Positions 11,656 to 45,367 are shown, numbered from the stretch's first letter. The stretch is 64,000 nucleotides of DNA from a bacterium (GCA_030646915.1 JAUSKT010000014.1:30409-94408); one strand, 5' to 3'. The notes: generated from the letters alone by a model not told the origin. Numbers and translations are program-made.

Positions 11656-11678
11656 TTAAAAGCAATATAATTTATGAG

Positions 11679-11782
11679 TCCCGTTAGAAAATTAATAAAT
11701 ATGTTTATATATAGCAATAATTTTATAGAGCAATATCGGAAGTCTTTAGTCGCAAAGACGTTTAATTTAATTTTCTAACGGG
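11679..11782 (+). repeat. start-codon palindromic element (MITE-like), copy 1, abutting rpsG ATG
   Basis: TCCCGTTAGAAAATTAA...TTAATTTTCTAACGGG terminal inverted repeat; flanked by ATGAG (11674-11678) and ATGAG (11783-11787); through-ORF 11674..11778. Confidence 0.85.
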
Positions 11783-12250
11783 ATGAGAAAAAAACGAAAT
11801 TATAAAAGAGACCACGAACCGGATTTAAATTATGGAAGCGTATTAATCGGCCGGTTTATTAATTATTTAATGGAAGACGGTAAAAAATTAGTTGCGGAGA
11901 AAGTGATGTATAAAGCTTTAGATGAAGTTAAAAAAGCAACCGGACAGGAGCCTTTGCAGGTTTTTGAAAAAGCAATGGAAAACGTGACGCCTATGGTGGA
12001 AGTTACTTCCAAAAGAGTTGGAGGCGCTAATTATCAAGTTCCCCGCGAAGTTCGGCAGGAAAGGAAATTTATGCTTGCTGCCCGCTGGATGATTGACGCA
12101 GCCAGGAAAAAAACCGGAAAACCAATGTCAGCCCGGCTTGCGGAAGAATTGGTGCTTGCCTCTAAAAATGAAGGTTCTGCGATTAAAAAGAAATTAGATA
12201 CTCATAGAATGGCAGAAGCTAACCGGGCATTTGCTCATTTTGCTAGATAA
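11783..12250 (+). CDS. rpsG: 30S ribosomal protein S7
   Basis: 155 aa with the S7 signature region (VEVTSKRVGGANYQVP), str-operon position. Confidence 0.95.
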   Translation: MRKKRNYKRDHEPDLNYGSVLIGRFINYLMEDGKKLVAEKVMYKALDEVKKATGQEPLQVFEKAMENVTPMVEVTSKRVGGANYQVPREVRQERKFMLAARWMIDAARKKTGKPMSARLAEELVLASKNEGSAIKKKLDTHRMAEANRAFAHFAR

Positions 12251-12256
12251 CCAGCT

Positions 12257-12664
12257 ATGAAAGAAAATACAGCGTCTCCTGAAAAAAAAGCAGAACAAAA
12301 ATCATCGAAACTTGTTCTTCAAAAAGTTTTCGAAAAATTTAGAAAAAGATCTGATGATCCTAAATATCCTTATAAAGAACAGCATAAATTAGCTGGGAAG
12401 CCTGAAACATCTCAAGAATTTATTGAAAGTAAAGAAGATAAAAAACACATTTCTCCTATCTGGGGAGTGTTGCTAACGACAGAGATGTTTTTAAAATCTG
12501 AAGAAGCCAAGCACATTTCAGAAATAGAAAAGAGAGAATTATTAAATAAAAAAAATGATTTATTAGAAGACCTAAAAAGAGCCAGGCAAAAAGAAAATAT
12601 TTCTGATGAATTATTAGCTAAGGTATCGGGTTTTATGGACGAAGTAGAAAGTTATCTTAAGTAA
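12257..12664 (+). CDS. hypothetical Lys/Glu-rich protein inserted between rpsG and fusA
   Basis: 135-aa ORF starting 6 nt after rpsG stop; no family recognised. Confidence 0.5.
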   Translation: MKENTASPEKKAEQKSSKLVLQKVFEKFRKRSDDPKYPYKEQHKLAGKPETSQEFIESKEDKKHISPIWGVLLTTEMFLKSEEAKHISEIEKRELLNKKNDLLEDLKRARQKENISDELLAKVSGFMDEVESYLK

Positions 12665-12684
12665 AAATCAATTTTAAATAAATT

Positions 12685-14787
12685 ATGCCAAGACAATATC
12701 CGATTGAAAAAACCAGAGATATCGGGATTATCGCCCATATCGACGCCGGGAAAACTACCGTTTCAGAACGGATTCTTTTTTATACAGGAGTTTCCCATAA
12801 AATCGGCGAGGTGCACGAAGGAGACACAGTAATGGATTGGATGGAGCAAGAGCGTGAACGGGGCATTACGATTACTTCTGCCGCTACCACTTGTTTTTGG
12901 ACGCCTACTTATCATCATGGCGATAAAAAATTTGAGCACCGGATTAATTTGATTGATACTCCGGGACATATTGATTTTACTGTTGAAGTAAAAAGATCGC
13001 TTCGGGTTTTGGACGGCGCAGTAGTGGTATTTGACGGAGTTTCCGGAGTGGAACCGCAGTCGGAAACTAACTGGCGTTATGCGGATGAATATAAAGTTCC
13101 AAGGCTTTGTTTTATTAATAAATTAGATAGGACTGGCGCAAGTTTTGAGGGAAGCTATAAATCTATTTTAGATAGGCTGACTTTAAATGCTATGCCAATT
13201 CAGCTTCCAATCGGATTGGAAAGCAATTTTGAAGGAATCGTGGATCTTTTAAAAATGAAAGCTTATCGGTTTGAAGGAGATAAGGGCGAAAAGATAATTG
13301 AGGGAGAAATTCCGGCATCAATGCTTGAAGAGGCAAAAAAACGGCGCCATGAATTAATTGAAAAAGTGATTGAACAAGACGATGAATTAATGGCGCGTTA
13401 TCTTGAAGGCAAAGAGCCGGATTTGGAATCTCTAAAAAAGACTTTGCGCAAAGCCACGATTGCGAATACTATAGTTCCGGTAGTTTGCGGTTCAGCATTA
13501 AAAAATAAAGGAGTTCAGCTGGTTTTGGACGCAGTAGTGGATTATCTTCCGTCTCCGGCGGATGTGCCTCCGGTAAAAGGAATTAATCCGAATAATGGCG
13601 AAGAAATAACCAGAGAGCCGAAAGATGACGGACCGATTGCAGCGCTGGCTTTTAAAATCGCTTCCGATCCGTTTGTGGGAAGTTTAACTTTCTTCAGAGT
13701 TTATTCCGGCACGGTAAAACGGGGCAGTTATATTTTAAATTCCACTAAAGGAGATAAGGAAAGAATCGGCCGGATGGTTCGGATGCACGCAAACCATCGG
13801 GAAGAAGTGGAAGAAGTTTATGCCGGAGATTTGGGCGCGATTGTCGGATTAAAAAATACCACTACCGGAGACAGCCTTTGTGATGAAGAAAATCCGATTA
13901 TTTTAGAAAAAATTATTTTTCCAGAACCGGTTATTTCTTTGCGTATTGATCCAAAAACCAAAGCCGACCAGGAAAAAATGGGTATTGCGCTTCGCCGTTT
14001 AGGAGAAGAAGACCCAACTTTTCGGGTTACTGGAGATGCGGAAACTGGGGAAACTATTATTTGGGGCATGGGCGAATTGCATTTGGAAATTATCGTTGAC
14101 CGGATGAAGCGGGAATTTGGCGTGCTTGTTAATACTGGCCGCCCGCAGGTTGCTTATAGGGAAACTATACGATCTGAAGCAGAAGCTGAAGGAAAATATA
14201 TCAAGCAATCCGGAGGCAAGGGACAATACGGCCATGTGCGATTGCGCGTTGAGCCGATGGAGCGCGGAAAAGGATTTGAATTTATTGATGACATTAAAGG
14301 AGGTTCGATTCCTAAAGAATTTATCAAACCAGTTGAAAAGGGCATTATTGAAGCTATGGCAAAAGGAGTTGTTGCCGGCTATGCATTAAATGATATGAGA
14401 GTTACTTTATATGATGGTTCTTACCACGAAGTTGATTCGTCTGAATCTGCTTTTAAAATTGCCGGTTCTATGGCTTTGCAGGAAGCAGCCAGGCGGGCTA
14501 AGCCGGTTTTACTTGAGCCGATTATGAAAGTCCAGACTTTGGTTCCATCGGAATTTATGGGAGATATTACCGGTGACATCAGTTCCAAGCGAGGAAAAAT
14601 TGAAGCAATGACAGATCGCGCAAATATTAAAGTAATTGATTCTCAGGTTCCGCTTTCAGAAATGTTCGGTTATGCAACAAAGCTTCGCTCTATGTCTCAA
14701 GGCCGCGGCAACTTTACTATGGAATTTGATCATTACGAAGAAACGCCGAATAATGTTGCAGAGCTTATAAAAGAAGGTAAAAAATAG
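12685..14787 (+). CDS. fusA: elongation factor G
   Basis: 700 aa; [18 protein letters not shown] GTPase motifs and full EF-G domain complement. Confidence 0.97.
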
Positions 14788-14962
14788 CTCGACTTTCGGT
14801 TTCCTCAAGAACGCTGCTTCGTCAGAAACAAAACTAATTCACTCATAGCATAAAAATTTCGCCCTAGTCATTCTTCCTGGGCACCTGAAATTTTTACTAC
14901 TCGCTCAAAGTTTTGTAATCTGCCTACGCAATGTTCTTTCAGAAAGAAAGTCTCGCTTGTTG
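14788..14962 (+). repeat. post-stop structured repeat, family C (large imperfect inverted repeat)
   Basis: starts directly after fusA TAG; left arm 14788-14836 is the imperfect reverse complement of 14909-14956; nested AAAAATTTC/GAAATTTTT stem; right arm resembles 29611-29685. Confidence 0.7.
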
Positions 14963-14988
14963 GATAAATTTTTACTATAACGCATTGC

Positions 14989-15160
14989 AGTACTACGCCT
15001 AGGTGTAGTACTGGACAAGTGAAGCTTTAAATATAAAAAACCCCCAGACTTTAGTCCGTGGATAGTTGGCATATCCCGCACTACACCTAGGTGTAGTGCG
15101 GGATAAGTGAAGCTTATGATATCAAAGAAACCGCGGCCGTAAGGCCGCGGAGTTTCACTT
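14989..15160. other. two tandem hairpin+AAGTGAAGCTT units followed by a GNRA-capped GC hairpin (candidate small RNA or protein-binding module)
   Basis: hairpin 14989-15012 and perfect 32-nt palindrome 15073-15104 share core ACTACRCCTAGGTGTAGT; each is followed by AAGTGAAGCTT (15017-15027, 15105-15115); CCGCGGCC-GTAA-GGCCGCGG at 15131-15150; AAGTGAA can pair with TTCACTT at 15154-15160. Confidence 0.5.
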
Positions 15161-15165
15161 AAATT

Positions 15166-15196
15166 AAAAAAACCGCTTTTCAGCGGTTTTGTTTTT
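15166..15196. terminator. bidirectional rho-independent terminator
   Basis: A7-ACCGC-TTTTCA-GCGGT-TTTGTTTTT; U-runs on both strands; overlaps the stop of the minus-strand CPBP-like gene. Confidence 0.75.
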
Positions 15197-15878
15197 CATA
15201 AGTGTAGTAGCCCGGGCCGACTCTCATATTGTGATGCCAGTCATTTGGCAAAGAATAGCTTACGGTTAATCCTAGAATTGCGTGTAATAATGCCAAAAGA
15301 TACACATTTCGCAATTGTTTATTAGGATTCAGAAAAAAATACGAGCAAAGAGTTCCGCCGAAAAAAGTTACTGGCATAAGCACTGGATTTGGCAAATGAG
15401 TAATTGCGAAAAGCAATCCGGTAATTAAAGCAGAAATAAATCTTTTATTAATAACACTGTTAATTTGATTTCCGAAATAACCATTTAGTATTATTTGCTG
15501 GAATAGCGCCCAAATAGAATAGCCCAGCAGATTTCCTGCAAAAAGAGCAAAATTTACTGGAAAATTATTTTGAATAAAAGAAAAAAAATTTGCCAGAAAG
15601 TCTGGATTATAAATTTCTGCGATTAAGGTAATAATTCTCCCAAAAAATACGGAAATGACTATTACTGGCAGGCGATCTATCACGGAATCTTTTGGCGACA
15701 AGCCCAGATTTTTCTTCAGAGTTTTCCAGGATGTTCCATTAGTCAGCCAAAGCCGACGTCCGACGTATAAAGACAGGGACAAGTAAAAAAATAATTTATA
15801 TGGCAGAATCCACATTGCCAAATTCACAATTAAGAATACTGCTATCAGTTCTATTGTTGTGGCGATTGGGCTAAGCAC
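15180..15878 (-). CDS. CPBP-family-like membrane protein (catalytic EE replaced by QQ)
   Basis: 232 aa polytopic; FAITH (FxxxH) and LLHAILG motifs present, but the EExxxR position reads QQIILNG. Confidence 0.5.
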   Translation of the reverse strand: MLSPIATTIELIAVFLIVNLAMWILPYKLFFYLSLSLYVGRRLWLTNGTSWKTLKKNLGLSPKDSVIDRLPVIVISVFFGRIITLIAEIYNPDFLANFFSFIQNNFPVNFALFAGNLLGYSIWALFQQIILNGYFGNQINSVINKRFISALITGLLFAITHLPNPVLMPVTFFGGTLCSYFFLNPNKQLRNVYLLALLHAILGLTVSYSLPNDWHHNMRVGPGYYTYEKQNR

Positions 15879-15974
15879 TTTCTGTATTTATTGTTGTATA
15901 GATCTAGGTCAAAATTAGCAATTTAAGACGGTTTTGTAAATCCCCGTACCTTATTTATGCACAATTTTAGCCCC

Positions 15975-16004
15975 TTGACAGATTTTATGGCTTTCGGCTA
16001 TAAT
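15975..16004 (+). promoter_or_regulatory. sigma70-type promoter for tuf
   Basis: TTGACA (15975-15980), 18-nt spacer, TATAAT (15999-16004); ~95-nt leader containing a CTGGCGGC...GCCGCTGG hairpin. Confidence 0.65.
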
Positions 16005-16102
16005 ATTTTGTATTACGCGTCGAGAGCAATTATATTAAAAATTATAAAAATTAAATTTAATTAACTGGCGGCATGGCTTAAAAGCCGCTGGGAAATAAGA
16101 CT

Positions 16103-17302
16103 ATGGCAGAAAAAGCCAAATTCGAACGAAAAAAGCCGCACGTAAACGTCGGCACAATCGGACACGTCGACCACGGTAAAACTACTTTAACCGCGGCTAT
16201 TACACACATCGCTTTTTTAAAAGGTTGGGCATCAAAAGAAGAGCGGGTAGATCAAATTGATAATGCTCCGGAAGAAAAAGCCCGCGGTATTACAATTGCT
16301 TTGCACCATTCAGAATATGAATCCGAAAAGCGCCACTATGCGCACGTGGATGCTCCAGGCCACGCAGATTACATTAAAAACATGATTACCGGCGCTGCCC
16401 AGATGGACGGCGCTATTATAGTAGTTTCCGCAGCAGACGGCCCAATGCCTCAAACTCGAGAGCATATTTTGCTTGCCCGCCAAGTCGGCGTGCCAGCTTT
16501 GGTTGTATTCTTGAATAAAGTGGATATGGTAGACGACCTAGAATTAGTTGATTTAGTTGAATCAGAAGTAAGGGAACTTTTAAAGAAATATGAATTTCCT
16601 GGTGATACTACGCCAGTTATCCGAGGTTCAGCCTTAAAAGCTTTGGAAACAAAATCAGCCGATTCTCCGGAAGCAAAGCCGATTTTAGATTTAATGAAAG
16701 CTTTAGATGAATTTATTCCGGACCCAGTTCGAGATACCAGCAAGCCTTTTCTTATGCCTATTGAGGATATTTTCTCAATTGAAGGCCGTGGCACAGTGGT
16801 TACTGGCAGAATAGAAAGAGGAATCGTTAAGATTAATGAAGAAATTGAAGTTGTCGGACTTACGCCAACTATGAAAACTGTTGTTACCGGCATTGAAATG
16901 TTTAATAAGCTTTTAGATGAAGGCCGAGCTGGCGATAATGTGGGTATCTTGCTTAGGGGTTTGAAAAAAGAAGACGTTCAAAGAGGTCAAGTTTTGACAA
17001 AGCCAGGCTCAGTTACTCCTCATACTGATTTTGAAACTGAAGTTTATGTGCTTAGTAAAGAAGAAGGCGGCCGCCACACCCCATTTTTCAAGGGTTATAA
17101 GCCTCAATTTTATATCCGAACTACTGATGTTACCGGTGAAGTAATTTTGCCGGAAGGTATGGAAATGGTAATGCCTGGCGACACTGTCAAGCTTACTGTT
17201 AAGTTAATTGCTCCTGTAGCTCTCGAAGAAAAACAGCGCTTTGCTATCCGCGAAGGAGGCAAAACGGTGGGAGCGGGAGTAGTTCTAAAGATTCAGAAAT
17301 AA
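16103..17302 (+). CDS. tuf: elongation factor Tu
   Basis: 399 aa; [19 protein letters not shown] motifs. Confidence 0.98.
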
Positions 17303-17329
17303 TAGAATCTTTATAGTTATCAGCCATTT

Positions 17330-17656
17330 ATGGCAAAAAAAGAAATTGAAAAAGAAAAATTGAGATTAAAGATAAAGGCCTACGATCATAAATTGATTGA
17401 TAATTCTTGCCGGCAAATTATTGATACGGCTAAGCGCCATGACGCAGAAGTTATTGGCCCGATTCCATTGCCAACAGAATTAAAAAAGTATACAGTCAAC
17501 CGGTCAACCTTTGTCCATAAAGATTCTAGAGAACAGTTTGAATTGCGGGTTCATAAGCGTTTAGTGGATATATTGAATCCTAATCAAAAGATCATAGAAT
17601 CTTTATCAAATCTTAATTTACCTGCAGGAGTTGATATCGAAATCAAAATGGTGTAA
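17330..17656 (+). CDS. rpsJ: 30S ribosomal protein S10
   Basis: 108 aa; [16 protein letters not shown] and the FELRVHKRL region typical of S10. Confidence 0.95.
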
Positions 17657-17697
17657 GATATCAATTACCATAAGGAGATAGCCAAATCATTATAAAA

Positions 17698-17728
17698 ATA
17701 ATTCGAGGCTACCTCGGATTATTTTTTT
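17698..17728 (+). terminator. intrinsic-terminator-like hairpin between rpsJ and rplC (possible attenuator)
   Basis: 11-bp stem ATAATTCGAGG-CTA-CCTCGGATTAT (one G-U pair) followed by T6. Confidence 0.55.
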
Positions 17729-17744
17729 AGAAAAATTATAAAAA

Positions 17745-18170
17745 ATGGAAAAAATACAAGCTAAAAAATTAAAAATGACTCAAATTTGGAAAGGCGACAA
17801 AGTCTTTCCTGTTTCTCCATTGCAATTGAAAGATGCTACTCAATTGGATTTATTCAAAGAAGGGGATCAAGTAAAAGTAACTGGAGTGACTAAGGGACAT
17901 GGCTTTCAAGGTGTGGTTAAGCGCTGGAGTTTTGCTGGCGGACCAAAAACCCATGGTCAGAAAAATCGTTATCGATCCCCTGGATCAATTGGCAGCACTG
18001 CTCCGCAAAGAGTTGTCCCGGGAAGAAAAATGGCTGGCCGAATGGGAGGAAATCAGAAGACCATTCGAAATTTAAAAGTAGTAGAGTTAGATAAAAATAC
18101 TGGAAAGCTTTTTGTGCGCGGTTCAGTTCCCGGCAATACAAATTCAAAAGTTTTAATAGCTAAATCTTGA
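17745..18170 (+). CDS. rplC: 50S ribosomal protein L3 (short form, 141 aa)
   Basis: KKLKMTQIW N-terminus, TKGHGFQGVVKRWSF and GSIGSTAPQRVVPGRKMAGRMG motifs; lacks about 60-70 residues of the central region found in typical ~210-aa L3. Confidence 0.88.
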   Translation: MEKIQAKKLKMTQIWKGDKVFPVSPLQLKDATQLDLFKEGDQVKVTGVTKGHGFQGVVKRWSFAGGPKTHGQKNRYRSPGSIGSTAPQRVVPGRKMAGRMGGNQKTIRNLKVVELDKNTGKLFVRGSVPGNTNSKVLIAKS

Positions 18171-18176
18171 TTTTTT

Positions 18177-18788
18177 ATGAACACGCTCAAAGTTTACAAT
18201 CAAGAAGGCAATGTTACTGGTGATTTATCCGCGCCGGCATTTTTGTCTTTGCCTTCAAATGTTGCTTTAATGCACCAAGTTTTTAAATCTATAGCGGCGA
18301 ATTTGCGCAAGCCAGTTGCTCATACTAAAAATAGAAGCGAGGTAAGCGGCGGCGGTATCAAACCTTGGAAACAAAAAGGAACTGGCCGAGCCAGACACGG
18401 TTCTATTCGTTCTCCGCTTTGGCGCCATGGCGGAGTTACTCACGGACCAAGAAATACAACTGATTTTTCCCAAAAAATTAATAAAAAAATGGCTAAAAAA
18501 GCTTTACAACTTGCTTTAGGAGAAAAGTTTAAAGCTGATCAGTTAATGGTAGTCAATGATCTTTTGCCGAAAGAAATGAAGACCAAATTTTTAGCTAGAA
18601 CAGTTAAAAATCTTATTGGCGATAAATCGGCGCTTTTAGTAGTTTCTCAGGAGGATAAAAATTTACTCCGGTCTTCTAAAAATCTTCCAAATGCAAAAAC
18701 AATTTTCGTTAAAGATTTGAATGTTTATGAAGTGTTAAATCATAAATATATTTTAATGGATAAAAAGGCTATGGAAAGTTTTAAATAA
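18177..18788 (+). CDS. rplD: 50S ribosomal protein L4
   Basis: 203 aa; KPWKQKGTGRARHGSIRSPLWRHGG motif; operon order. Confidence 0.93.
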   Translation: MNTLKVYNQEGNVTGDLSAPAFLSLPSNVALMHQVFKSIAANLRKPVAHTKNRSEVSGGGIKPWKQKGTGRARHGSIRSPLWRHGGVTHGPRNTTDFSQKINKKMAKKALQLALGEKFKADQLMVVNDLLPKEMKTKFLARTVKNLIGDKSALLVVSQEDKNLLRSSKNLPNAKTIFVKDLNVYEVLNHKYILMDKKAMESFK

Positions 18789-18794
18789 AATGGA

Positions 18795-18898
18795 TCCTGT
18801 TAGAAAATTAATAACTATGTTTAATCATATCCAAAATTTTATAGAGCAATATCAGAAGTCTTCAGTCGGCAAGATGTTTAATTTAATTTTCTAACGGG
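18795..18898 (+). repeat. start-codon palindromic element, copy 2, abutting rplW ATG
   Basis: TCCTGTTAGAAAATTAA...TTAATTTTCTAACGGG; flanked by ATGGA (18790-18794) and ATGGA (18899-18903); through-ORF 18790..18894. Confidence 0.85.
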
Positions 18899-19177
18899 AT
18901 GGACAAATTTTTAATAAAAAAACCTATTGTTACTGAAAAATCTACTGATCTTGGCGCTTTAAATAAGTATGTTTTTTTGGTTGACGAAAAAATTACTAAA
19001 TCGGAGGCCAAAAAAGTTTTAGAAAAAATTTATAATGTTCAGATACTAAGAACAAATGTTATTAATGTTAAAGGCAAGACCCGCCGATTAGGCAATAACG
19101 TTGGCATTAAGCCTGGATATAAAAAAATTATCGCGACTCTTGCAAAAGGCCAAAAATTAGATATATTACCGCAATAG
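18899..19177 (+). CDS. rplW: 50S ribosomal protein L23
   Basis: 92 aa; PIVTEKS start region and operon order. Confidence 0.9.
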   Translation: MDKFLIKKPIVTEKSTDLGALNKYVFLVDEKITKSEAKKVLEKIYNVQILRTNVINVKGKTRRLGNNVGIKPGYKKIIATLAKGQKLDILPQ

Positions 19178-19195
19178 TTAAATAAGCCAGTATTT

Positions 19196-20020: not shown

Positions 20021-20024
20021 TTTT

Positions 20025-20351
20025 ATGAGCAGAAGTTCTAAAAAGGGTCCTTACGTTGATCCAAAATTATTAAAGAAAATTTCTAAATTAAAACCGGGAG
20101 ATAAAACGGTTATTAAGACTTGGTCCCGAGCTTCGGAAATCGCTCCGGAAATGGTTGGTTTTGTTTTTGGCGTCCATAATGGAAAGAATTTTATTGAGGT
20201 TTTAATTAAAGAAGAAATGGTTGGCCATCGTCTCGGGGAATTTTCTTTAACTCGTAAATTTGTCCGCCATGGAGGTAAAATGCAGCGAGAGCTGGAAGCT
20301 TCTAAAGCTGCTGCTCCCGCCGCTTCGCCAGCACCGGGCGCTAAAAAGTAA
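20025..20351 (+). CDS. rpsS: 30S ribosomal protein S19 (with Ala/Pro-rich C-terminal tail)
   Basis: [11 protein letters not shown] start, [13 protein letters not shown] motif. Confidence 0.94.
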
Positions 20352-20368
20352 ATTTTATTAAAAATTTT

Positions 20369-20875
20369 ATGTCTCAAGTTACTGCAAAATTAAATTATCT
20401 ACATATCGCACCGAGGAAAGTTCGGTTAGTTACCAATGCCTTAAAAGGCCTTTCAGTTAATGAAGCAGAGGCTCAGCTTTTATTCAGGTCAAAGCGTTCT
20501 AGTGAATCTTTATTAAAACTTCTTCGTTCTGCGGTGGCTAATGCAAAAAATAATCATAAATTAAATGTGGATCGTCTAGTAATTAAGGATATCCGCGTAA
20601 ATCAGGGGCCAATGCTTAAAAGATTTATGCCGCGCGCAATGGGACGAGCTACTCCGATTCAAAAGAAAACAAGCCATATTTTTTTAGTTTTAGAAGAGCG
20701 TTCTAATTTTAAATCCTCAAGATTTAATATTGCAGTTTCTAAGAAGACTAAAGTGCCAAAAACAGAAAAAACTGTAGCAAAACCTAAATTAATTAAGACT
20801 GACACATCTGTTAAAAAAACTAAAGAAAAGGCCGGGTTTTTCCGAAAATTATTTTCTAGAAAGAGCGCAGTTTAA
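20369..20875 (+). CDS. rplV: 50S ribosomal protein L22 (C-terminally extended)
   Basis: LHIAPRKVRLV and RAMGRATPIQKKTSHI motifs; ~55-aa Lys-rich extension. Confidence 0.92.
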   Translation: MSQVTAKLNYLHIAPRKVRLVTNALKGLSVNEAEAQLLFRSKRSSESLLKLLRSAVANAKNNHKLNVDRLVIKDIRVNQGPMLKRFMPRAMGRATPIQKKTSHIFLVLEERSNFKSSRFNIAVSKKTKVPKTEKTVAKPKLIKTDTSVKKTKEKAGFFRKLFSRKSAV

Positions 20876-20888
20876 TCAATTAATTATT

Positions 20889-21551
20889 ATGGGTCACAAA
20901 ATTAATCCAAATTCATATAGGATTGGAATTAACAAAAACTGGACTTCCCGTTGGTTTGTTCGAAAGAATGTAAAAGATGTATTAGAAGAAGATATTGCTA
21001 TTCGAAAGATTATTCGTGAAAAAATCGGCACTGCCGGTTTAGATAAAATTGATATTGAGCGCAATACTTCTCAATGCAAAATTTTTATTAAAGCGGCTAA
21101 GCCGGGCTTGGTTATCGGCCGTGGCGGTCAGGGTATTGAAGATTTAACAAAAGCTATTGAAAAAGAATTATTAAAATTAGTTAAGCGGAGGAAAAGAGGA
21201 GTTCCGCCAACTATTAGCGTTAATGTTGAAGAATTGAAACGGACAGAAATTTCTGCTCCGGTATTAGCGCAGCAAATAGCTTGGGATTTAGAGAAGAGAA
21301 TGCCTTTTCGTAGAACTATGAAGAAATATTTAGAAGGAATGATGCAAAACAGGGATGTTCAAGGAGCAAAAATAAGGATGTCAGGACGTTTGGATGGCAA
21401 TGAAATCGCGCGCACCGAGTGGTTGGCGAAGGGGAGATTGCCTTTAACTACTTTACGTTCTAATATTGATTACGCTGATGCCACTGCTTTTTGCAGTTAT
21501 GGGGCAATAGGAATAAAAGTCTGGATTTATAAGGGAGAAGTGCAAGAATAA
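20889..21551 (+). CDS. rpsC: 30S ribosomal protein S3
   Basis: [13 protein letters not shown] start, KH domain GRGGQGIE. Confidence 0.96.
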
Positions 21552-21553
21552 TT

Positions 21554-21964
21554 ATGTTAATGCCTAAAAAAGTAAAACATAGGAAGTGGCAAAAAGGCCG
21601 TTCCTTAAATAGAAAGATGGAAACTCGCGGCACTACTTTGGCTTATGGTAATTTTGGTTTAAAAGCTGAAACTAGCGCTTGGATTAACGGCAGGCAGATT
21701 GAAGCAGCCCGAAGAGCAATAAGTAATTTTATTAAAAGAGAGGGAAAGGTGTGGATTAGGATTTTTCCGGATAAACCGATTACTGAAAGGCCCCCAGAAG
21801 TTACTATGGGTGGCGGCAAAGGAGATTTAAAGGAATTTGTAGTCCCAGTTTATCCAGGCAGGATTCTTTTTGAAATGGATGGAGTTGCTCCAGAAATAGC
21901 CAAAGAAGCTTTGCGATTAGCTGGATATAAATTGCCGGTTAAAACACGAGTAATTGTTAAATAA
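21554..21964 (+). CDS. rplP: 50S ribosomal protein L16
   Basis: [16 protein letters not shown] start, RMGGGKG-like TMGGGKGD motif. Confidence 0.96.
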
Positions 21965-21966
21965 TC

Positions 21967-22158
21967 ATGAAACGGGACATTTTACAAAATTTAAAAGAGA
22001 AATCCAAGGATGACCTTGAGAAAGAATTAATAAGCGTCAAAGATCGTTTGTGGCGGCTAAAAGTTGATTTAGAAAGCGGAAAGGTAAAGAATGTCAGTGA
22101 GATACGCAAATCCAGAAAGGCGATTGCCGTCATTAACACCTTATTAAAATCAAAATAA
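21967..22158 (+). CDS. rpmC: 50S ribosomal protein L29
   Basis: 63 aa helical protein in the conserved L16-L29-S17 position. Confidence 0.88.
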
Positions 22159-22168
22159 ATTTAAAATT

Positions 22169-22477
22169 ATGTTAGGGATATTTAATAAAAAAGATTCTAA
22201 TTCTGATCAAAAAAATATGTCGGAAGTTAAAGATCAGAAAAAATCCGGGAGTCGCAAGCTCCAGGGGGTTGTGGTTTCAGATAAAATGAAAAAAACAGTC
22301 GTAGTAGCAGTTACAAATTATAAATTACATCCAAAATATAAGAAATTTTTTACTTCTACCAATCGTTTTAAAGCTCATGATGAGAATAATACGTATCATG
22401 TCGGCGATAAAGTCATAATCCAAGAAACTCGGCCACTTAGTAAAGAAAAAAGGTGGATTGTAGTCGGCAAATTATAA
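22169..22477 (+). CDS. rpsQ: 30S ribosomal protein S17 (N-terminally extended)
   Basis: [16 protein letters not shown]...HPKYKK...HDENN...[14 protein letters not shown] pattern. Confidence 0.92.
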
Positions 22478-22484
22478 AAATTTT

Positions 22485-22853
22485 ATGATTCAAGAAAGAT
22501 CTATTTTAAAAGTTGCGGATAATAGCGGCGCTAAAATCGTCCGATGTTTTAGGGTGCTTGGCGGCAGTAGAAAGCGATATGCGGGAATCGGCGACATTAT
22601 TGTTGCTTCAGTCCAAATTGCTGAACCCCGAAAGCCGATCAAAAAGAAAGAAATAGTCAAAGCTTTAATAGTCCGTCAGCATAAGGCGCTTCGCAGAAAA
22701 GACGGTTCTTATATTCGTTTTGATGATAATGCCGTTGTAATTATTGATGAAAAGGGGGAGCCGAAAGGAACTCGTATTTTTGGACCGGTGCCGAGAGAAA
22801 TTAAAGAGTACGGATTTGAAACAATATTTTCAATGGCAGAAGAAATAGTTTAA
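22485..22853 (+). CDS. rplN: 50S ribosomal protein L14
   Basis: [17 protein letters not shown] start; 122 aa. Confidence 0.97.
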
Positions 22854-22862
22854 ATATATGAA

Positions 22863-22967
22863 TCCCGTTAGAAAATTAATAAATATGTATAAATATATAA
22901 ATAATTCAACCAAGCAATATAGAAAGTCTTTAGTCGGAAAGACGTTAGTTTTAATTTTCTAAACGGG
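22863..22967 (+). repeat. start-codon palindromic element, copy 3, abutting rplX ATG
   Basis: TCCCGTTAGAAAATTAA...TTAATTTTCTAAACGGG (one bulged A); flanked by ATGAA (22858-22862) and ATGAA (22968-22972); through-ORF 22858..22962. Confidence 0.85.
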
Positions 22968-23273
22968 ATGAATATTCATAAAGGTGATAATGTACAAATA
23001 ATGGCGGGTAAAGATCGCGGCAAGCGGGGCAAGGTTTTAGATATTGAAATGAAAAAATCTAAAATTTTGATACAAGGATTGAATTTATTTAAAAAACATA
23101 AAAAACCGACAAAGCAGGGAGAAAAAGGAGAAACTATTTCTGTATCCCGCTATTTGAGCGTATCTAGCGCATTGTTGGTTTGCAGTTCTTGCGATAAACC
23201 ATCTCGCATTGGATATAAAGATGAAGGCGGGAAAAAAGTCCGTTATTGCAAAAAATGCCAGGCAATAATTTAA
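22968..23273 (+). CDS. rplX: 50S ribosomal protein L24 (with CxxC...CxxC C-terminal module)
   Basis: KGDNVQIMAGKDRGKRGKV KOW motif; operon order. Confidence 0.92.
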   Translation: MNIHKGDNVQIMAGKDRGKRGKVLDIEMKKSKILIQGLNLFKKHKKPTKQGEKGETISVSRYLSVSSALLVCSSCDKPSRIGYKDEGGKKVRYCKKCQAII

Positions 23274-23278
23274 ATAAT

Positions 23279-23767
23279 ATGAAAGAAAATTCTTATAAAA
23301 ATTTAGAAAAATTAGTTGTTAATACCGGCCTTGGCCGCTTATCGAGCCAGCCTAATTTTGAAGATAAATTGCTTCCGGAATTAGTAAAGGAATTCAGCGT
23401 TATTGTCGGACAAAAGCCGGCAATTCGCGCCGCTAAAAAATCTATTGCCGGATTTAAACTTAGGATGGGAACGGTGGTTGGATTAAAAGCTACTTTAAGA
23501 AAAAAGCGCATGGAGCAATTTTTGAAAAAATTGATTAATGTTGTGTTGCCTCGCGTCCGGGATTTTCGCGGAGTTAAAAATACTGCTATCGATCAGAATG
23601 GAAATTTAAGCATAGGCTTAAAAGATCAATTAGTTTTTCCGGAAGTAAGCCCGGAAACTTCCAGAGTTAATTTCGGATTGGAAGTCACCTTGGTTCCAAA
23701 ATCCAAGAATAAAGAAAAAGCAGTCGAGTTATATAAAGAATTGGGGATACCCTTCAGTAAAAAATAA
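23279..23767 (+). CDS. rplE: 50S ribosomal protein L5
   Basis: start moved to the ATG at 23279 ([11 protein letters not shown]), 6 nt after rplX stop; VVNTGLG and [13 protein letters not shown] motifs. Confidence 0.92.
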
Positions 23768-23778
23768 ATTTATTAATT

Positions 23779-23964
23779 ATGGCAAAAGCATCAGTTGAGG
23801 CGAGAGCCCGTAAAAAACCAAAATATTCCAGCAGAAAAGTACTGCGTTGTTTTCGTTGTGGCCGAAAACGCGGTTATATCAGGGATTTTGGCCTATGTAG
23901 AATTTGTTTTAGAGAAATGGCTATTAAGGGCGAAATTCCCGGAGTTAAAAAGTCTAGCTGGTAG
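23779..23964 (+). CDS. rpsN: 30S ribosomal protein S14 type Z (zinc-binding)
   Basis: 61 aa; [20 protein letters not shown] zinc motif. Confidence 0.95.
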
Positions 23965-23985
23965 TTTTTAAGCTTATATAAAATT

Positions 23986-24366
23986 ATGTATTTCGATTTA
24001 TTAACAAAAATTAAAAATGCTCAGGCTGTGAAAAAAGAAAGCGTGAAGCTTCTATATAGTAATATGGATTTTGCAGTCGCTGAACTTCTTGTCAAACATA
24101 AATTTTTAGAAGCAGCCTCCAAAAAGGGCAGAATGCCTAAGAGAATTTTAGAGGTGAAGCTAAAGTATCAAGACGGCAAAGGAGTAATGCAGAATTTCCG
24201 CATTTTAAGCAAGCCTTCTAGAAAATTGTATATTGGATATAAAGATATCAGGCGAGTCCGGCAAGGATATGGCTTATTAGCCTTATCTACTCCAAAAGGT
24301 ATTTTGGACGGAAAATCAGCCAGACAGCAGAAATTAGGAGGCCAATTATTATTTGAGATATGGTAG
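23986..24366 (+). CDS. rpsH: 30S ribosomal protein S8
   Basis: 126 aa; LLTKIKNAQ start and C-terminal GGQLLFEIW. Confidence 0.94.
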   Translation: MYFDLLTKIKNAQAVKKESVKLLYSNMDFAVAELLVKHKFLEAASKKGRMPKRILEVKLKYQDGKGVMQNFRILSKPSRKLYIGYKDIRRVRQGYGLLALSTPKGILDGKSARQQKLGGQLLFEIW

Positions 24367-24399
24367 TTCGATAATTTTGCTATAAATTAAATTAAAATT

Positions 24400-24951
24400 A
24401 TGTCTAAAGTAGGTAAAAAACCAATTATTATTCCAGACGGAGTCAGTGTTAAAATGGAAGGAGGCTTTTTAGAAATTAAAGGAAAAGAAGGATCTCTTTC
24501 TTTGCCGATTTTGCCGCATACAAAAATTGAATTAAGCGATAAAGAGTTATCCGTAAAAATAGAAAATGACGAATTGCAGGCAAGGGCTAATTGGGGAACG
24601 ATGAGGGCTTTGGCGCAAAATGCGATTACAGGAGTAAACAGCGGGTTTTTAAAAGAATTAGAAATTCAAGGAGTGGGATATCGGGCGTCAATGGAGGGCA
24701 ATACTCTGGTATTGCACGTAGGTTTTTCTCATCCAGTTAAAATTTTAGTTCCGGATGGCATAAAGGTTTCAGTTGAGAAAAATTTTATAAAAATTTCCGG
24801 TTTTAACAAGAATTTAGTTGGCCAGGTGGCGGCAAAAATTAGAGATGTTAAAAAGCCAGAGCCATATCAAGGCAAGGGCATCCGTTATAAAGGCGAAGTG
24901 GTTCGGAGAAAGGCGGGCAAGAAAGTTGCCAGCGCTGCTGCCGCTGCTTAA
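24400..24951 (+). CDS. rplF: 50S ribosomal protein L6
   Basis: MSKVGKKPIIIPDGV start, EPYQGKGIRYKGE motif. Confidence 0.95.
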   Translation: MSKVGKKPIIIPDGVSVKMEGGFLEIKGKEGSLSLPILPHTKIELSDKELSVKIENDELQARANWGTMRALAQNAITGVNSGFLKELEIQGVGYRASMEGNTLVLHVGFSHPVKILVPDGIKVSVEKNFIKISGFNKNLVGQVAAKIRDVKKPEPYQGKGIRYKGEVVRRKAGKKVASAAAAA

Positions 24952-24974
24952 GTCATATAGTGTAATTTATGAAA

Positions 24975-25079
24975 TCCCGTTAGAAAATTAATAAATATGT
25001 TTAAATATAGCAATAATTTTATAAAGCAATATAGCAAGTCTTATGTCGGTAAGACGTTGAATTTAATTTTCTAAACGGG
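24975..25079 (+). repeat. start-codon palindromic element, copy 4, abutting rplR ATG
   Basis: same ends with a bulged A; flanked by ATGAAA (24969-24974) and ATGAAA (25080-25085); the 6-nt duplication puts the upstream ATG out of frame (ATG AAA TCC CGT TAG); internal hairpin carries compensatory GTCTTA/TAAGAC. Confidence 0.85.
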
Positions 25080-25436
25080 ATGAAAAATATTAAATTAAAA
25101 AATGTTAAAAGAGAAAGGAGAAAGAAAAGAAATCGGGCAAAAATTTTAGGCACAGCTGAAATGCCGAGATTTTCAGTTTTTAGAAGCAATCGTTATACCA
25201 GCGCGCAATTGATTGATGACTTATCAAGAAAAACTTTATTATCAGCCTCTACTAAAGAGTTGAAAGTATCTGGGAAGAATAAAACTGACCAAGCCCGTTT
25301 AGTAGGAGAAATGCTAGGAGAAAAAGCGCAAAAAGCCGGAATTAAAAAAGCTGTTTTTAACAAAGGATCATATCTATATCATGGCCGAGTGAAAGCTGTC
25401 GCAGATGGTGCAAGAGCCAAAGGTTTAGCATTATAA
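25080..25436 (+). CDS. rplR: 50S ribosomal protein L18
   Basis: 118 aa; PRFSVFRSNRYTSAQLIDD and YHGRVKAVADGAR motifs. Confidence 0.94.
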   Translation: MKNIKLKNVKRERRKKRNRAKILGTAEMPRFSVFRSNRYTSAQLIDDLSRKTLLSASTKELKVSGKNKTDQARLVGEMLGEKAQKAGIKKAVFNKGSYLYHGRVKAVADGARAKGLAL

Positions 25437-25447
25437 AAGCCAATATT

Positions 25448-25996
25448 ATGGAAAATAAACAAAATCAAAATACTAATTTTAAAAATCCGGCCGGCGGCCG
25501 CGGCCGTAATTTCAGGGGGCCGCGCAGAGATTCCAGGGGAGATTTTAAGCAAGATTCTTTTAAAGAAAAAGTTTTAGACTTGCGGAGAGTTACTCGCGTG
25601 GTAGCCGGCGGCAAGAGGTTTCGTTTTCGAGTCACCTTAGTCATTGGCGATGAAAAAGGATCTGTAGGAGTGGGGGTAGCTAAGGGTTTGGATGTTCAAT
25701 CGGCTATAGAAAAATCAAAGCGAGATGCCAGAAAGAATGTAATTAAAATTCCATTAAATAAACGTACTATTCCCCATGAAGTTCGGGCAAAGTTTAGCGC
25801 AGCCGATGTTTTAATTAAGCCTGCAGTTGAAGGCCATGGATTAAAGGCGGGGGGCGCAGTTCGGGTAGTTTTATCTTTGGCTGGCATCAAAGATGTAACT
25901 GCGAAATGTTTGGGCAGAACGCCAAATAAATTAACTAACGCAATGGCAACTATAAAAGCCTTGTCCCAGTTAAAAGTTAAAAGTGAAAAGTTATAA
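25448..25996 (+). CDS. rpsE: 30S ribosomal protein S5
   Basis: RVTRVVAGGKRFRFRVTLVIGD and GVGVAKG motifs; Gly/Arg-rich N-terminal extension. Confidence 0.95.
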   Translation: MENKQNQNTNFKNPAGGRGRNFRGPRRDSRGDFKQDSFKEKVLDLRRVTRVVAGGKRFRFRVTLVIGDEKGSVGVGVAKGLDVQSAIEKSKRDARKNVIKIPLNKRTIPHEVRAKFSAADVLIKPAVEGHGLKAGGAVRVVLSLAGIKDVTAKCLGRTPNKLTNAMATIKALSQLKVKSEKL

Positions 25997-26004
25997 AATT
26001 TATT

Positions 26005-26388
26005 ATGGAATTATTTAGAAATTCAAAACAAAATAATAAAAGAGTCCAGAGAGTTGGGCGCGGCGGAAAGCGGGGAACCACTTCCGGCAGGGGAACAAAG
26101 GGGCAAAAATCCCGATCCGGCCATAGAATTCGGCCGGCAGAAAGGGATTTATTAATCCGATTGCCAAAATTGCGCGGATACAGAAATAAATCGATTAAAG
26201 AAAAATCAGGGGTGTTAAATTTAAGCGATTTAGCAAATTCAAAAGATACGATTTTTAATAAGAAAAATCTCGGTTTGGTAAAGATTTTGGGAGGAGGAGA
26301 ATTAAAAAAGCCGATTACTATTGAGGGTTTGCCAGTTTCTAAAAGCGCAAAAATAAAAATAGAAAAGGCTGGCGGGACAGTTAAATAA
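26005..26388 (+). CDS. rplO: 50S ribosomal protein L15
   Basis: RVGRGGKRGTTSGRGTKGQKSRSG motif; directly follows rpsE with no rpmD. Confidence 0.93.
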   Translation: MELFRNSKQNNKRVQRVGRGGKRGTTSGRGTKGQKSRSGHRIRPAERDLLIRLPKLRGYRNKSIKEKSGVLNLSDLANSKDTIFNKKNLGLVKILGGGELKKPITIEGLPVSKSAKIKIEKAGGTVK

Positions 26389-26398
26389 AGGTGATGGA

Positions 26399-26502
26399 TC
26401 CCGTTAGAAAATTAATAAATATGTTTATATATAGCAATAATTTTATAGAGCAATATCAGAAGTCTTTAGTCGGAAAGACGTTTAATTTAATTTTCTAACG
26501 GG
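26399..26502 (+). repeat. start-codon palindromic element, copy 5, abutting secY ATG
   Basis: perfect 16-nt TIR; flanked by ATGGA (26394-26398) and ATGGA (26503-26507); upstream duplicate preceded by AAGGTG; through-ORF 26394..26498. Confidence 0.85.
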
Positions 26503-27765
26503 ATGGAGAAATTACTTATTTTATTAAAAACGCCGGAGTTAAGAAAAAAGATTTTAGTGGTAGCTAGCCTGCTTTTAGTTTTTAGAGTTTTTTCTGCCAT
26601 ACCAATTCCTGGCGTTGATGTAGACCGCTTAAGCGCTTTTTTATCTTCCAACCAATTGCTAGGATTTTTTAACATTTTTTCTGGAGGAGCCCTTTCCACG
26701 CTTTCTATCGTGATGTTGGGGGTGGGCCCTTATATTACCGCGACTATTATCATGCAGCTTCTTACGATGATCTTTCCCCACTTAAAAGAAATTTATTATG
26801 AGCAGGGTGAAGCCGGCCGGGCGAAATTTAACAGGCTTTCTCATTATCTTACGGTTCCGCTTGCCGGATTGCAGGGATATGGATTTTTAAATCTTTTAAT
26901 TTCTCAAAAAGTTTTATTGCCATTATCTCCATTTGATACCGTAAGAAATATTCTCTTAATTACCGCGGGGTCACTTTTTTTGGTTTGGCTTGGGGAATTA
27001 ATCACCGAGCAGAAAATCGGTAATGGAGTTTCTGTTTTGATTTTTGCCGGAATCGTCAGCCAATTACCTAGTACAATTCAAGGGCTGTTTTTAAGTTATG
27101 ATCCTAGCTTAGTGCCAACTTACGTAGCTTTTTTGGTTTTAAGCGTGATAGTAATCGCTGGAGTAGTTTTTATTAATGAAGGAGAGCGGAAAGTTCCTGT
27201 TTCTTATTCTAAGCGAGTTCGTGGTAATCGGGTTTATGGCGGAGTCTCCAGCTACCTACCTTTAAAAGTCAATCAAGCGGGAGTCATTCCAATTATTTTT
27301 GCTATTTCTCTTCTGCTCTTTCCCCAATTCTTAGCTCAGGTTTCTGCTGTATTTTCTCCGGATCTTTCTATACGCCTGACTGAGTTAGTATCCAAAGTTT
27401 TGGGTAATCCCAGCCTTTACAGCGCTTTATACTTTATATTAGTAGTAATTTTTACTTATTTTTATACTGCTGTTACTTTTGATCCTCAGGAAATTTCTAA
27501 AAACCTTCAGAGAAGCGGCGGTTTTATTCCCGGCATCCGTCCCGGCCAGCCCACTGGCGAATTTTTATCCAAAGTAATTAATAGGACAACTTTGTTTGGC
27601 GCATTATTTTTAGGCACATTAGCTGTTTTGCCAAATATAATGCAGATTTTGACCGGAGTTCAGCTTTTGGCCTTGGGAGGCACATCGCTTTTAATTGTTG
27701 TATCTGTGGCCTTAGAAATAATGAAACAACTTGATTCACAGCTTGTTTTGAGAGAGTACGAGTAG
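26503..27765 (+). CDS. secY: preprotein translocase subunit SecY
   Basis: 420 aa, 10 TM; GVGPYITATIIMQLL and GELITEQKIGNG motifs. Confidence 0.96.
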   Translation: MEKLLILLKTPELRKKILVVASLLLVFRVFSAIPIPGVDVDRLSAFLSSNQLLGFFNIFSGGALSTLSIVMLGVGPYITATIIMQLLTMIFPHLKEIYYEQGEAGRAKFNRLSHYLTVPLAGLQGYGFLNLLISQKVLLPLSPFDTVRNILLITAGSLFLVWLGELITEQKIGNGVSVLIFAGIVSQLPSTIQGLFLSYDPSLVPTYVAFLVLSVIVIAGVVFINEGERKVPVSYSKRVRGNRVYGGVSSYLPLKVNQAGVIPIIFAISLLLFPQFLAQVSAVFSPDLSIRLTELVSKVLGNPSLYSALYFILVVIFTYFYTAVTFDPQEISKNLQRSGGFIPGIRPGQPTGEFLSKVINRTTLFGALFLGTLAVLPNIMQILTGVQLLALGGTSLLIVVSVALEIMKQLDSQLVLREYE

Positions 27766-41022: not shown

Positions 41023-41241
41023 TTATTTCAAAGTTCAATTTAATACATGAAGTATAGTGATAAAAATCAAAAAATCAATACATGGGTTGAAAAAATCTTA
41101 TTTTTTGATAAAATTAATCGGATGAAGTTATCAATCGGCATGGAGCGAACACAACCAGACATATAAGAGGGGATGCTGGCGCTAAAGCGATTCCGTTCGT
41201 GTTGAAAATAAAAATTCCGGAAAGGGTATATCATTTATAGT

Positions 41242-41883: not shown

Positions 41884-41928
41884 AGCCGAATTTTTATTCA
41901 TAAATTTATTTTCTATCATTTTTCCATA

Positions 41929-42685: not shown

Positions 42686-42818
42686 AGTATTCATTACTAT
42701 TATCGTCCTCATATTTTTCTTCATCTTGATTATCGCCCTCATTACCGTGCCCATCATTACTATTGGCCGCAATACAACAACAAATTATTAATATGATAAC
42801 CCAAAGAGGAATAAACAT
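42669..42818 (-). CDS. small TM-CCC peptide with acidic tail (49 aa)
   Basis: hand-translated MFIPLWVIILIICCCIAANSNDGHGNEGDNQDEEKYEDDNSNEYYEENY; paralogous N-terminus to 42835..42894. Confidence 0.45.
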   Translation of the reverse strand: MFIPLWVIILIICCCIAANSNDGHGNEGDNQDEEKYEDDNSNEYYEENY

Positions 42819-42834
42819 ATTGATAAATATATTT

Positions 42835-42894: not shown

Positions 42895-42913
42895 ATTTGA
42901 AAAATTTTATATA

Positions 42914-45356: not shown

Positions 45357-45367
45357 AATTAGTTTAT

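Follow-up and report, generated by a model that had tools for sequence, protein, structure and literature searches.

Among the bacterial MITEs (miniature transposable elements with inverted repeats), the Correia elements of Neisseria generate a TA duplication, lie between genes in either orientation, and act through promoters, integration host factor (IHF) sites, and RNase III. In the Candidate Phyla Radiation (CPR)/Patescibacteria, ultra-small bacteria whose genomes of about 1 Mb have almost no spare DNA, mobile elements are little known. A different kind of mobile palindrome, the Rickettsia palindromic elements (RPEs), owes its tolerance in essential genes to being translated in frame (PMC10969869). 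Nowhere in a 2024 review of prokaryotic MITEs does the phrase "start codon" occur (PMC10969869). Here we analyze a 64,000-nt stretch of bacterial DNA (GCA_030646915.1, JAUSKT010000014.1:30409-94408; the window), in whose ribosomal gene cluster five palindromic sequences of 104–105 nt sit exactly on start codons. Our results support the view that these are copies of a non-autonomous, MITE-like transposon family of CPR/Patescibacteria. From their sequence we propose, as a reasonably probable reading, that the transposon preserves the translational coupling of the operons it enters by means of a relay upstream open reading frame (uORF).

A search of the 64-kb window for the arm CCCGTTAGAAAATTAA, allowing up to 2 mismatches, gave 10 matches that form 5 inverted pairs, as compared with a mean of 0.16 matches in shuffled sequence. 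A covariance model of the family found just these five elements (E ~1e-15 to 1e-17), the next match having E = 0.78. All five are in sense orientation relative to the genes. If the initial T of the element is counted together with the A of the ATG that follows it, the inverted repeat at the ends, TCCCGTTAGAAAATTAA...TTAATTTTCTAACGGG(A), is perfect over 17 bp. Alignment shows that copies 1, 2, and 5 are 104 nt long and that copies 3 and 4, at 105 nt, carry an extra A in the 3' arm (CTAAACGGG), which is bulged in copy 3; the 5' arm of copy 2 reads CCT where the others have CCC, which makes for a G-U pair in the RNA. Identity among the five ranges from 76% to 98%, the latter value being that of copies 1 and 5.

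Each element stands between two copies of a short string beginning with ATG (all features in this paragraph are on the + strand). Copy 1 (11679..11782; 5' arm 11679-11695, 3' arm 11767-11782, to which the A at 11783, from the ATG, is added) is preceded by ATGAG (11674..11678), the original rpsG start codon, which is now the start of a predicted uORF of 34 codons (MSPVRKLINMFIYSNNFIEQYRKSLVAKTFNLIF) and a TAA (11674..11778) that ends 4 nt before the rpsG ATG at 11783. Copy 2 (18795..18898) follows ATGGA (18790..18794), and its uORF, also 34 codons and a TAA (18790..18894), ends 4 nt before the rplW ATG at 18899. Copy 3 (22863..22967) follows ATGAA (22858..22862), and its uORF, again 34 codons and a TAA (22858..22962), stops 5 nt short of the rplX ATG at 22968. 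Copy 5 (26399..26502) follows ATGGA (26394..26398), and its uORF (34 codons and TAA, 26394..26498) ends 4 nt before the secY ATG at 26503. Copy 4 (24975..25079) follows a 6-nt target copy, ATGAAA (24969..24974), which shifts the frame, so that the upstream ATG opens only a mini-ORF, MKSR* (24969..24983), stopped by a TAG within the 5' arm. From the conserved in-frame internal ATG, 13 nt past that TAG, a second ORF (24997..25074) runs to a TAA 5 nt before the rplR ATG at 25080, and we propose that it may be used as a second leg of the relay.

The flanks of copies 1 to 5 are thus ATGAG/ATGAG, ATGGA/ATGGA, ATGAA/ATGAA, ATGAAA/ATGAAA, and ATGGA/ATGGA, with the downstream ATGs being the starts of rpsG, rplW, rplX, rplR, and secY and the upstream ones lying 18, 1, 4, 17, and 5 nt past the stops of rpsL, rplD, rplN, rplF, and rplO, respectively. 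Excision of the element together with one repeat leaves stop-to-start gaps of the same 18, 1, 4, 17, and 5 nt. The initial annotation of this sequence had reported the five sense-oriented copies at these positions, the variants of copies 2, 3, and 4, a duplication that tracks each downstream gene, junctions of 1–18 nt after excision, the restriction of all copies to the ribosomal cluster, and the lack of a transposase beside them. All of this was borne out (no transposase lies in the cluster), and the 16-nt terminal inverted repeat given there holds as well but becomes 17 bp once the element's initial T and the ATG's A are counted.

Comparison with relatives argues that the elements are insertions. 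The closest relatives have SecY proteins 93, 84, and 83% identical to that of the window, the 93% relative covering rplO-secY alone, and they have ordinary short junctions at rplD-rplW, rplN-rplX, rplF-rplR, and rplO-secY. Their genes open with the same bases as follow the element in the window (for example, ...TATATGAAAAATATTAAATTAAAAAAT for rplR in L130; L numbers are our labels for the sequences compared), and the N-termini of the host proteins in the window are the same as those of the relatives. In 14 more distant relatives there is no insert at the rpsL-rpsG junction, and rpsG again starts with ATGAGAAAAAAG. The next relatives by SecY are labelled Candidatus Harrisonbacteria, and here the sites are reciprocal: one Harrisonbacteria genome is filled at rpsE-rplO and empty at rplO-secY, while the window is the opposite. 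That rpsE-rplO copy is about 76% identical to the window copies, whereas another copy of this lineage, in L013, is 88% identical to copies 1 and 5 even though the SecY proteins are only about 80% identical. The rpsE-rplO copy is the one found in the four further Harrisonbacteria/Paceibacter clusters examined, and among 80 more distant related ribosomal clusters (about 800 kb) variant copies were found in 2 only.

These comparisons establish that the elements have moved and that they duplicate their target. The initial annotation had read them as MITE-like, and that reading is supported by the empty orthologous sites, found at four junctions in the closest relatives and at rpsL-rpsG in more distant ones, and by the same geometry in other genomes, where flanking duplications, placement on start codons, and orientation bias are all present. 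The family also has other structural features of MITEs. Perfect arms of 16–17 bp form terminal inverted repeats in the five copies and in 51 relatives; the duplication follows the insertion site, and the cases other than AA (AG/AG, GA/GA, CA/CA) match too; the elements are small, 95–107 nt in the main family and up to about 135 nt in variant subfamilies, with no transposase inside; and many dispersed copies occur, with filled and empty sites among relatives. The exception is a cognate transposase, none being found by Pfam analysis of the ORFs of the window or beside the phage copies described below, whose neighbors are structural genes.

To follow the family more widely, an exact-pattern scan was made of one genome per species from 185,579 species, using as the pattern the inner arms without the CCCG tips. 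Of the 45 loci obtained, 42 are full elements with CCCG tips, all of them in metagenome-assembled genomes (MAGs) of Patescibacteria (about 24 genomes) labelled Harrisonbacteria, Liptonbacteria, Sungiibacteriota, Brennerbacteria, Paceibacter, or Saccharibacteria; the remaining 3 lack the CCCG tips and were set aside as chance matches. A loose search of IMG/VR with the tips gave four phage contigs, in one of which the element, with ATGAA/ATGAA flanks, sits on the start of an adaptor-protein gene. Adaptor genes of the Mu F-like and SU10 types are present on the phage contigs with same-tip elements (L131-L134). A GGAGG 9 nt before the ATG is provided by the 3' arm in L133, and in L134 the element lies just upstream of a Shine-Dalgarno site, not on the ATG.

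Residence on start codons is a property of the whole family. Of the 51 analyzed elements, nearly all coincide with the ATG of an ORF that is long and belongs to a recognizable Pfam family. The hosts include L24 in four genomes, L18, L36, L29, L15, and TIM twice each, and also L4, S7, GyrA, TopA, PolA, SecY, PheS, ClpP, SSB, TrmD, Def, and MAP; ribosomal-protein genes make up about 18 of the 51 sites. The 5-nt flanks match exactly in 35 of 51 cases (29 ATGAA, 4 ATGGA, 2 ATGAG), and most of the others are off by one base or an indel. Downstream starts are ATGAA in about 78% and ATGRR in about 92% of cases, against a background of 16% and 40%, respectively, at 97 ordinary gene starts. Base counts of the flanks revealed no further conserved position and no Shine-Dalgarno motif. 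Orientation is equally regular: a GTCG motif, where present (about 42 of 51), is always on the gene-proximal (3') side, and covariance-model scores are higher on the sense than on the antisense strand throughout. The upstream neighborhood is that of an operon junction, with 36 of 51 elements at most 18 nt from the stop of an upstream ORF on the same strand, 9 of them with an ATGA overlap; at such junctions translational coupling is expected.

The window contains 527 ATGRR sites; 43 lie wholly between genes and about 30 at gene starts, and it is at gene starts that all five insertions sit. If tolerance were the only factor, many copies should be intergenic, and something else must therefore contribute; targeting, selection at the level of the element, and protection from deletion are candidates for this exclusivity.

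The interior of the element carries a conserved reading frame. Where the duplication is 5 nt long, the codons from the upstream ATG onward are ATG-NNT-CCC-GTT-AGA-AAA-TTA, that is, M-x-P-V-R-K-L. Across the variable interior, 43 of 52 elements have no stop in this frame (+1), compared with 5 of 52 for each other frame and 17% of shuffled sequences. The other two frames run into TAG or TAA within the 5' arm. Frame +1 is open in 36 of the 39 elements with an ATG 5 nt upstream but in only 2 of the 8 without an upstream ATG. These 36 uORFs end between -16 and +16 of the gene start, all but one within -16 to +1, and they use the TAA of CTAACGGG, 4–5 nt before the gene ATG, the TGA of an overlapping ATGA, or the TAA of TTAATT, 12–13 nt before it (positions -7/-8, +1, and -15/-16 relative to the true ATG). 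With three alternative stops in or beside the 3' arm, the length of the interior may therefore vary in all three mod-3 classes and leave the arrangement intact. The uORFs are 31–42 codons long; their peptide is unconserved beyond the arm-encoded residues, and the hairpin described below is read in different frames. As no peptide is conserved, selection would act on the openness of the frame and not on its product.

An internal ATG provides a further regularity. Within 24 nt of the 5' arm it is found in frame +1 in 34 of 51 elements, 2, 5, or 8 nt past the arm, in frame +2 in 8, and in frame 0 in none. Copy 4 shares its arrangement with two other elements that have 6-nt duplications, their upstream ATG yielding just MKSR or MQSR before a stop.

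At the RNA level, the arms are predicted to pair into a long hairpin stem that includes the first T of the element with the A of the downstream AUG, with folding z-scores of -2.6 to -4.9. Helix pairing is conserved, the rare arm substitutions being matched on the opposite side: L004 has C-G in place of T-A at the tip, which makes the start codon GTG, and L006 has two double changes. A second conserved structure, present in 42 of 51 elements, is a stem-loop with a G[TC]C[GA] loop, located 16–19 nt ahead of the 3' arm. Its 39 distinct stems have a mean contiguous length of 4.9 bp versus 2.7 bp in shuffles, and none of 500 simulations gave a mean as high. In the window this GUCG hairpin is at 11742-11759, 18858-18875, 22926-22943, 25038-25055, and 26462-26479 (+ strand) in copies 1 to 5, and the stem of copy 4 has a compensatory T-A to A-T change relative to copy 1. 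The conserved frame, the internal ATG, the GUCG hairpin, and the spread across CPR and phage contigs go beyond the account given in the initial annotation. No terminator-like site was predicted at any of the five elements. A promoter role was considered and rejected, as only weak 9/12 matches occur in the AT-rich interior and the count for the region, 44, is not above the shuffle mean of 39.9.

Termination-reinitiation coupling is almost abolished at a gap of about 20 nt in E. coli and Haloferax (PMC10666635), and therefore a bare structured insert of 104 nt should uncouple an essential gene from its upstream neighbor. The arrangement of the element suggests how this could be avoided. Insertion leaves the original start codon and its initiation context upstream and regenerates an identical start codon downstream. 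In the proposed mechanism, the element would stay in the mRNA. Ribosomes would start or re-start at the retained upstream ATG and read the M-x-P-V-R-K-L frame, and their passage would melt the helix between the arms, in which the A of the true AUG and its immediately preceding bases would otherwise be paired. They would then terminate at one of the 3'-arm stops (the UAA 4–5 nt before the AUG, the overlapping UGA of AUGA, or the UAA 12–13 nt before) and re-initiate on the host gene. Ribosomes arriving in the other frames would stop at the UAG or UAA of the 5' arm and could restart at the internal AUG, which follows within a few nucleotides, as in copy 4. Such a relay would keep the stop-start coupling tight and make insertion before essential genes survivable. 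Both the translation of the uORF and its role in coupling are proposed here from the sequence.

A more specific version of this idea, which we regard as tentative and somewhat doubtful, is that the element is an obligate parasite of start codons. A putative autonomous form with no promoter or ribosome-binding site of its own would capture the start codon of a host gene, read through its left arm (M-x-P-V-R-K-L) into a transposase frame, and return the ribosomes at its right arm; the 104-nt copies would be deletion derivatives that retain the relay. Since propagation would then require residence in sense orientation on an expressed start codon, this would explain the location better than tolerance alone. 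If true, it would be the first transposon built into an operon translational relay.

Several points weigh against our reading. The 45 loci were chosen by exact inner-arm sequence, which partly builds in the conservation of the arms in that set, and copies that share one genome are not independent observations. Some copies that lack the upstream ATG and open frame lie on functional-looking genes (three in Sungiibacteriota, and L025, L035, and L041), and some variant subfamilies have stops in the frame; because such copies and subfamilies exist, the relay is not indispensable. The three Sungiibacteriota copies (L003 5613-5729; L006 4154-4270 and 7499-7615), all on gene ATGs and from one MAG, have neither an upstream ATGNN nor an open frame, and an upstream stop lies 0–6 nt before their helix. 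The relay model leaves them unexplained; a shunt across the base of the helix is conceivable. A stable helix 6 nt past the upstream AUG should hinder initiation there, and the openness of the frame could in part be a relic of a parental transposase frame. Finally, in about 1.4 Mb of CPR DNA we found neither an autonomous element nor a transposase with the same ends, and in the loci examined a search of orphan arms and of arm pairs 200–5000 nt apart gave none that bound a single element.

If the elements were purely selfish MITEs in which translation plays no part, the frame and the internal ATG would be relics of a parent transposase gene, of which an internal deletion spared the first and last codons, and the downstream ATG would be used directly. 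In favor of this, copies without upstream ATG or open frame still precede intact essential genes; the conserved ATG just within the left arm, together with a stop in the right one, does resemble the two ends of a compact transposase gene, and the in-frame stops of some variant subfamilies fit as well. We nevertheless consider this explanation unlikely. Interiors have diverged to 50–70% identity between genomes, yet frame +1 alone is open (43/52 vs 5/52), and although interior length spans all mod-3 classes, termination still falls at most 16 nt from the start. What is more, loss of the upstream ATG is accompanied by loss of the frame (2/8 vs 36/39 open), whereas a relic would decay equally in every frame. 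Another possibility is that hosts have recruited the element as a control device, with the helix gating the start codon to make translation of the downstream gene conditional on that of the upstream cistron or uORF, the GUCG hairpin binding a putative regulatory protein, and the sequence being kept for the benefit of the host. This would accommodate the pairing of the A of the AUG and the preceding bases, the invariant-loop hairpin, which has no explanation in the transposon model, and the prominence of ribosomal-protein genes, including all five sites in the window. It is made quite unlikely by the patchy distribution (the closest relatives and most of the 80 related clusters are without the element), by the fact that different genes carry it in different genomes and that phage structural modules carry it too, and by the recent origin of copies within a genome, which are up to 98% identical.

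Skipping or removal of the element at the RNA level, by a ribosome shunt or hop over the base of the helix, from the upstream AUG or stop to the identical downstream AUG, by RNase III cleavage of the 17-bp helix leaving a near-leaderless mRNA, or by splicing between the repeats, would not need an open frame, an internal in-frame ATG, or 3'-arm stops, and all three are conserved. The geometry itself is suggestive, as the sequences for take-off and landing are identical and are brought close to each other by the stable helix between them, and the Sungiibacteriota copies, with a stop 0–6 nt before the helix and no uORF, would be natural candidates. However, 104 nt is too small for known self-splicing introns, there is no Rfam intron or ribozyme match, and we judge any such route very unlikely. 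The least probable alternative, in our view almost untenable, is an ancestral cis-regulatory leader of ribosomal-protein operons (an ancestral leader was raised in the initial annotation) or a small conserved protein gene. The presence of all five window copies in the str/S10/spc cluster and of a copy at rplX in four genomes would agree with it. On the other hand, the orthologous junctions are empty in relatives with SecY 83–93% identical, copies occur also on gyrA, topA, polA, tpiA, clpP, ssb, and other genes, the flanking duplication tracks each gene, and the peptide is unconserved and the hairpin read in different frames. There is no Rfam leader match either, and the leader was rejected on the grounds of the empty sites, which contradict it.

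If the relay reading is correct, it describes a way for a transposon to colonize a compact genome by way of essential start codons, five of them in one ribosomal region, and it provides a natural and compact translational coupling cassette. The family would also be a marker for horizontal exchange among CPR lineages and phages. For annotation it would carry a warning, since the inserts create spurious ORFs of 30–40 codons and long apparent leaders before core genes. It also poses a question of target choice, gene-start ATGRA being used far more than intergenic ATGRA, which is roughly equally numerous.

Variant subfamilies have in common only the outer 9–10 nt, TCCCGTTAGA...TCTAACGGGA; their inner arms differ and yet pair within each element. 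Subfamilies of about 133 nt were seen at L077 1923-2055, 4674-4806, and 4980-5112, L033 1151-1286, L041 3672-3806, L040 1759-1890, and L011 2857-2993, mostly with ATGAA or ATGGA flanks and with the uORF open in some and closed in others. A C-G-tipped subfamily (CCCCGTTAG...CTAACGGGG) is present at L077 7323-7440 and 9266-9380, L003 3519-3637, L026, and L004. The copies at L077 9266 and in L026 have TAAA/TAAA flanks, which in L077 lie beside a stop codon, and the flanks of the other copies match partly. These tips bear on the delimitation of the element. A 5-bp ATGRA duplication with a 104-nt element and a 4-bp TGRA duplication with a 105-nt element fit the data equally well; in the 4-bp parse the last A of the element itself completes the ATG, and the C-G-tipped copies hint at a tip base pair that is part of the element. 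The 4-bp parse is favored by L004, which has C...G tips, an upstream ATGAA flank, and a downstream GTGAA start, and by the TAAA/TAAA flanks of the two C-G-tipped copies.

Other small inserts were noted at CPR gene junctions. Ribosomal clusters of Harrisonbacteria contain further palindromic families that have the TCCC...GGGA tips of the present element (L138 2620-2890, L136 6759-6877, L013 2706-2824, and L024 6599-6717). A tandem pair, TCCCTCACCCTTAAAGGAC...GTCCTTTAAGGGTGAGGGA, lies directly on the rplB ATG, its interior opening with a copy of the rplB 5' end, and a TCCCGCACATAAATTTA... palindrome lies in the rplX-rplE spacer. The shared TCCC...GGGA tips suggest a superfamily defined by its tips. 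Unrelated repeat-rich or palindromic inserts of 85–150 nt were seen in L056, L086/L087, L102, L103, and L111 at the same junctions as in the window (rplN-rplX, rplF-rplR, rplO-secY), which seem to be general landing sites for small repeats.

The only recombinase of the window is a large serine recombinase (50964-52607), in a separate low-GC block at about 41000-53000 (0.32–0.35) that has a locally reversed GC skew, a NERD nuclease gene (41242-41883), and several ORFs without a Pfam family. In all probability this block is a mobile element that integrated here, or what is left of a prophage, and has no connection with the start-codon elements. A match to the LOOT RNA motif (RF03000; 45432-45537, - strand; 61.6 bits vs a gathering threshold of 46.4) lies at the edge of a low-GC block. 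Within the ribosomal region, a 135-aa ORF without a Pfam family (12257-12664, + strand) lies between rpsG and fusA, and a gene for an Rce1-like membrane protein (15180-15878, - strand) lies between fusA and tuf, beside two bidirectional terminator-like hairpins (15131-15190). The L30 gene (rpmD) is absent between rpsE and rplO (25996-26005); lack of L30 is a CPR trait. Just past the 3' end of the window, a Logan assembly of the same organism (L135 11208-11672) has an ORF for a LAGLIDADG homing endonuclease.

Among described mobile sequences, the Correia/NEMIS elements are similar in size (about 100–150 bp), in their long inverted repeats, short duplication, and many copies, and in having no transposase of their own; they too are co-transcribed with neighboring genes and form a hairpin in the mRNA. 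Membership of that family was ruled out by the ATGRA duplication and by an arm sequence unrelated to the Neisseria 26-bp repeat, and the present element differs further in its start-codon residence, its exclusive sense orientation, and its conserved through-reading frame. Integron attC sites are imperfect palindromes of about 60–140 nt with a core GTTRRRY and an inverse core RYYYAAC, and there is some likeness in that the arms hold GTTAGAA and TTCTAAC and some copies have an extra-helical base. An attC site, which reads RYYYAAC...GTTRRRY and lies 3' of a cassette ORF, was ruled out nonetheless: the order is GTTAGAA...TTCTAAC on both strands, the elements are 5' of ORFs and flanked by a duplication, and there is no integrase. 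Palindromes derived from IS200/IS605 (PATEs) insert 3' of a fixed tetra- or pentanucleotide, make no target duplication, and have a separate subterminal hairpin at each end; such an element was likewise excluded, given the variable duplication on both sides and the pairing of the two ends with each other. As a lead only, and one that may be due to chance, the ends resemble what we take to be IS1380/piggyBac-type ends, with a 4–5 bp duplication and CC(C) followed by TAGA-like bases; the tips are presumably CCCTAGAAAGATA in piggyBac and CCTAGATTCTACG in ISEcp1, as compared with (T)CCCGTTAGAAAAT in the element. Unlike those transposons, it has ATGRA and not TTAA or AT-rich DNA as its target, and no IS1380-like transposase was found beside any copy. 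Rfam 15, including its ribosomal leaders and introns, gave no match at the gathering threshold, the best sub-threshold hit being unrelated (19 bits vs 45–48).

As for the way in which the inserts are accommodated, T4 gene 60, the yeast mitochondrial byp elements, and the cauliflower mosaic virus (CaMV) 35S leader have an insert with matching take-off and landing sites and a stem-loop at the former, and the byp elements are mobile. Bypass or shunting needs no open frame in the gap, whereas the element has a conserved one and sits at an initiation codon, not at an internal codon. In our literature search, which was incomplete, we found no description of a transposon that resides on start codons or carries a coupling frame. 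An RPE enters an ORF and contributes to the protein itself, whereas in the present case the 3'-arm stop closes the frame and the host protein is unchanged, and an element of the RPE type was ruled out because the frame stops before or at the host ATG. The mode we propose is that of termination-reinitiation coupling at ATGA overlaps and short gaps (PMC6728339; PMC10666635), to which a stop that overlaps the start or lies at most 16 nt from it corresponds. Unlike in ordinary coupling, the intermediate cistron would come from a mobile element and would have no conserved product.

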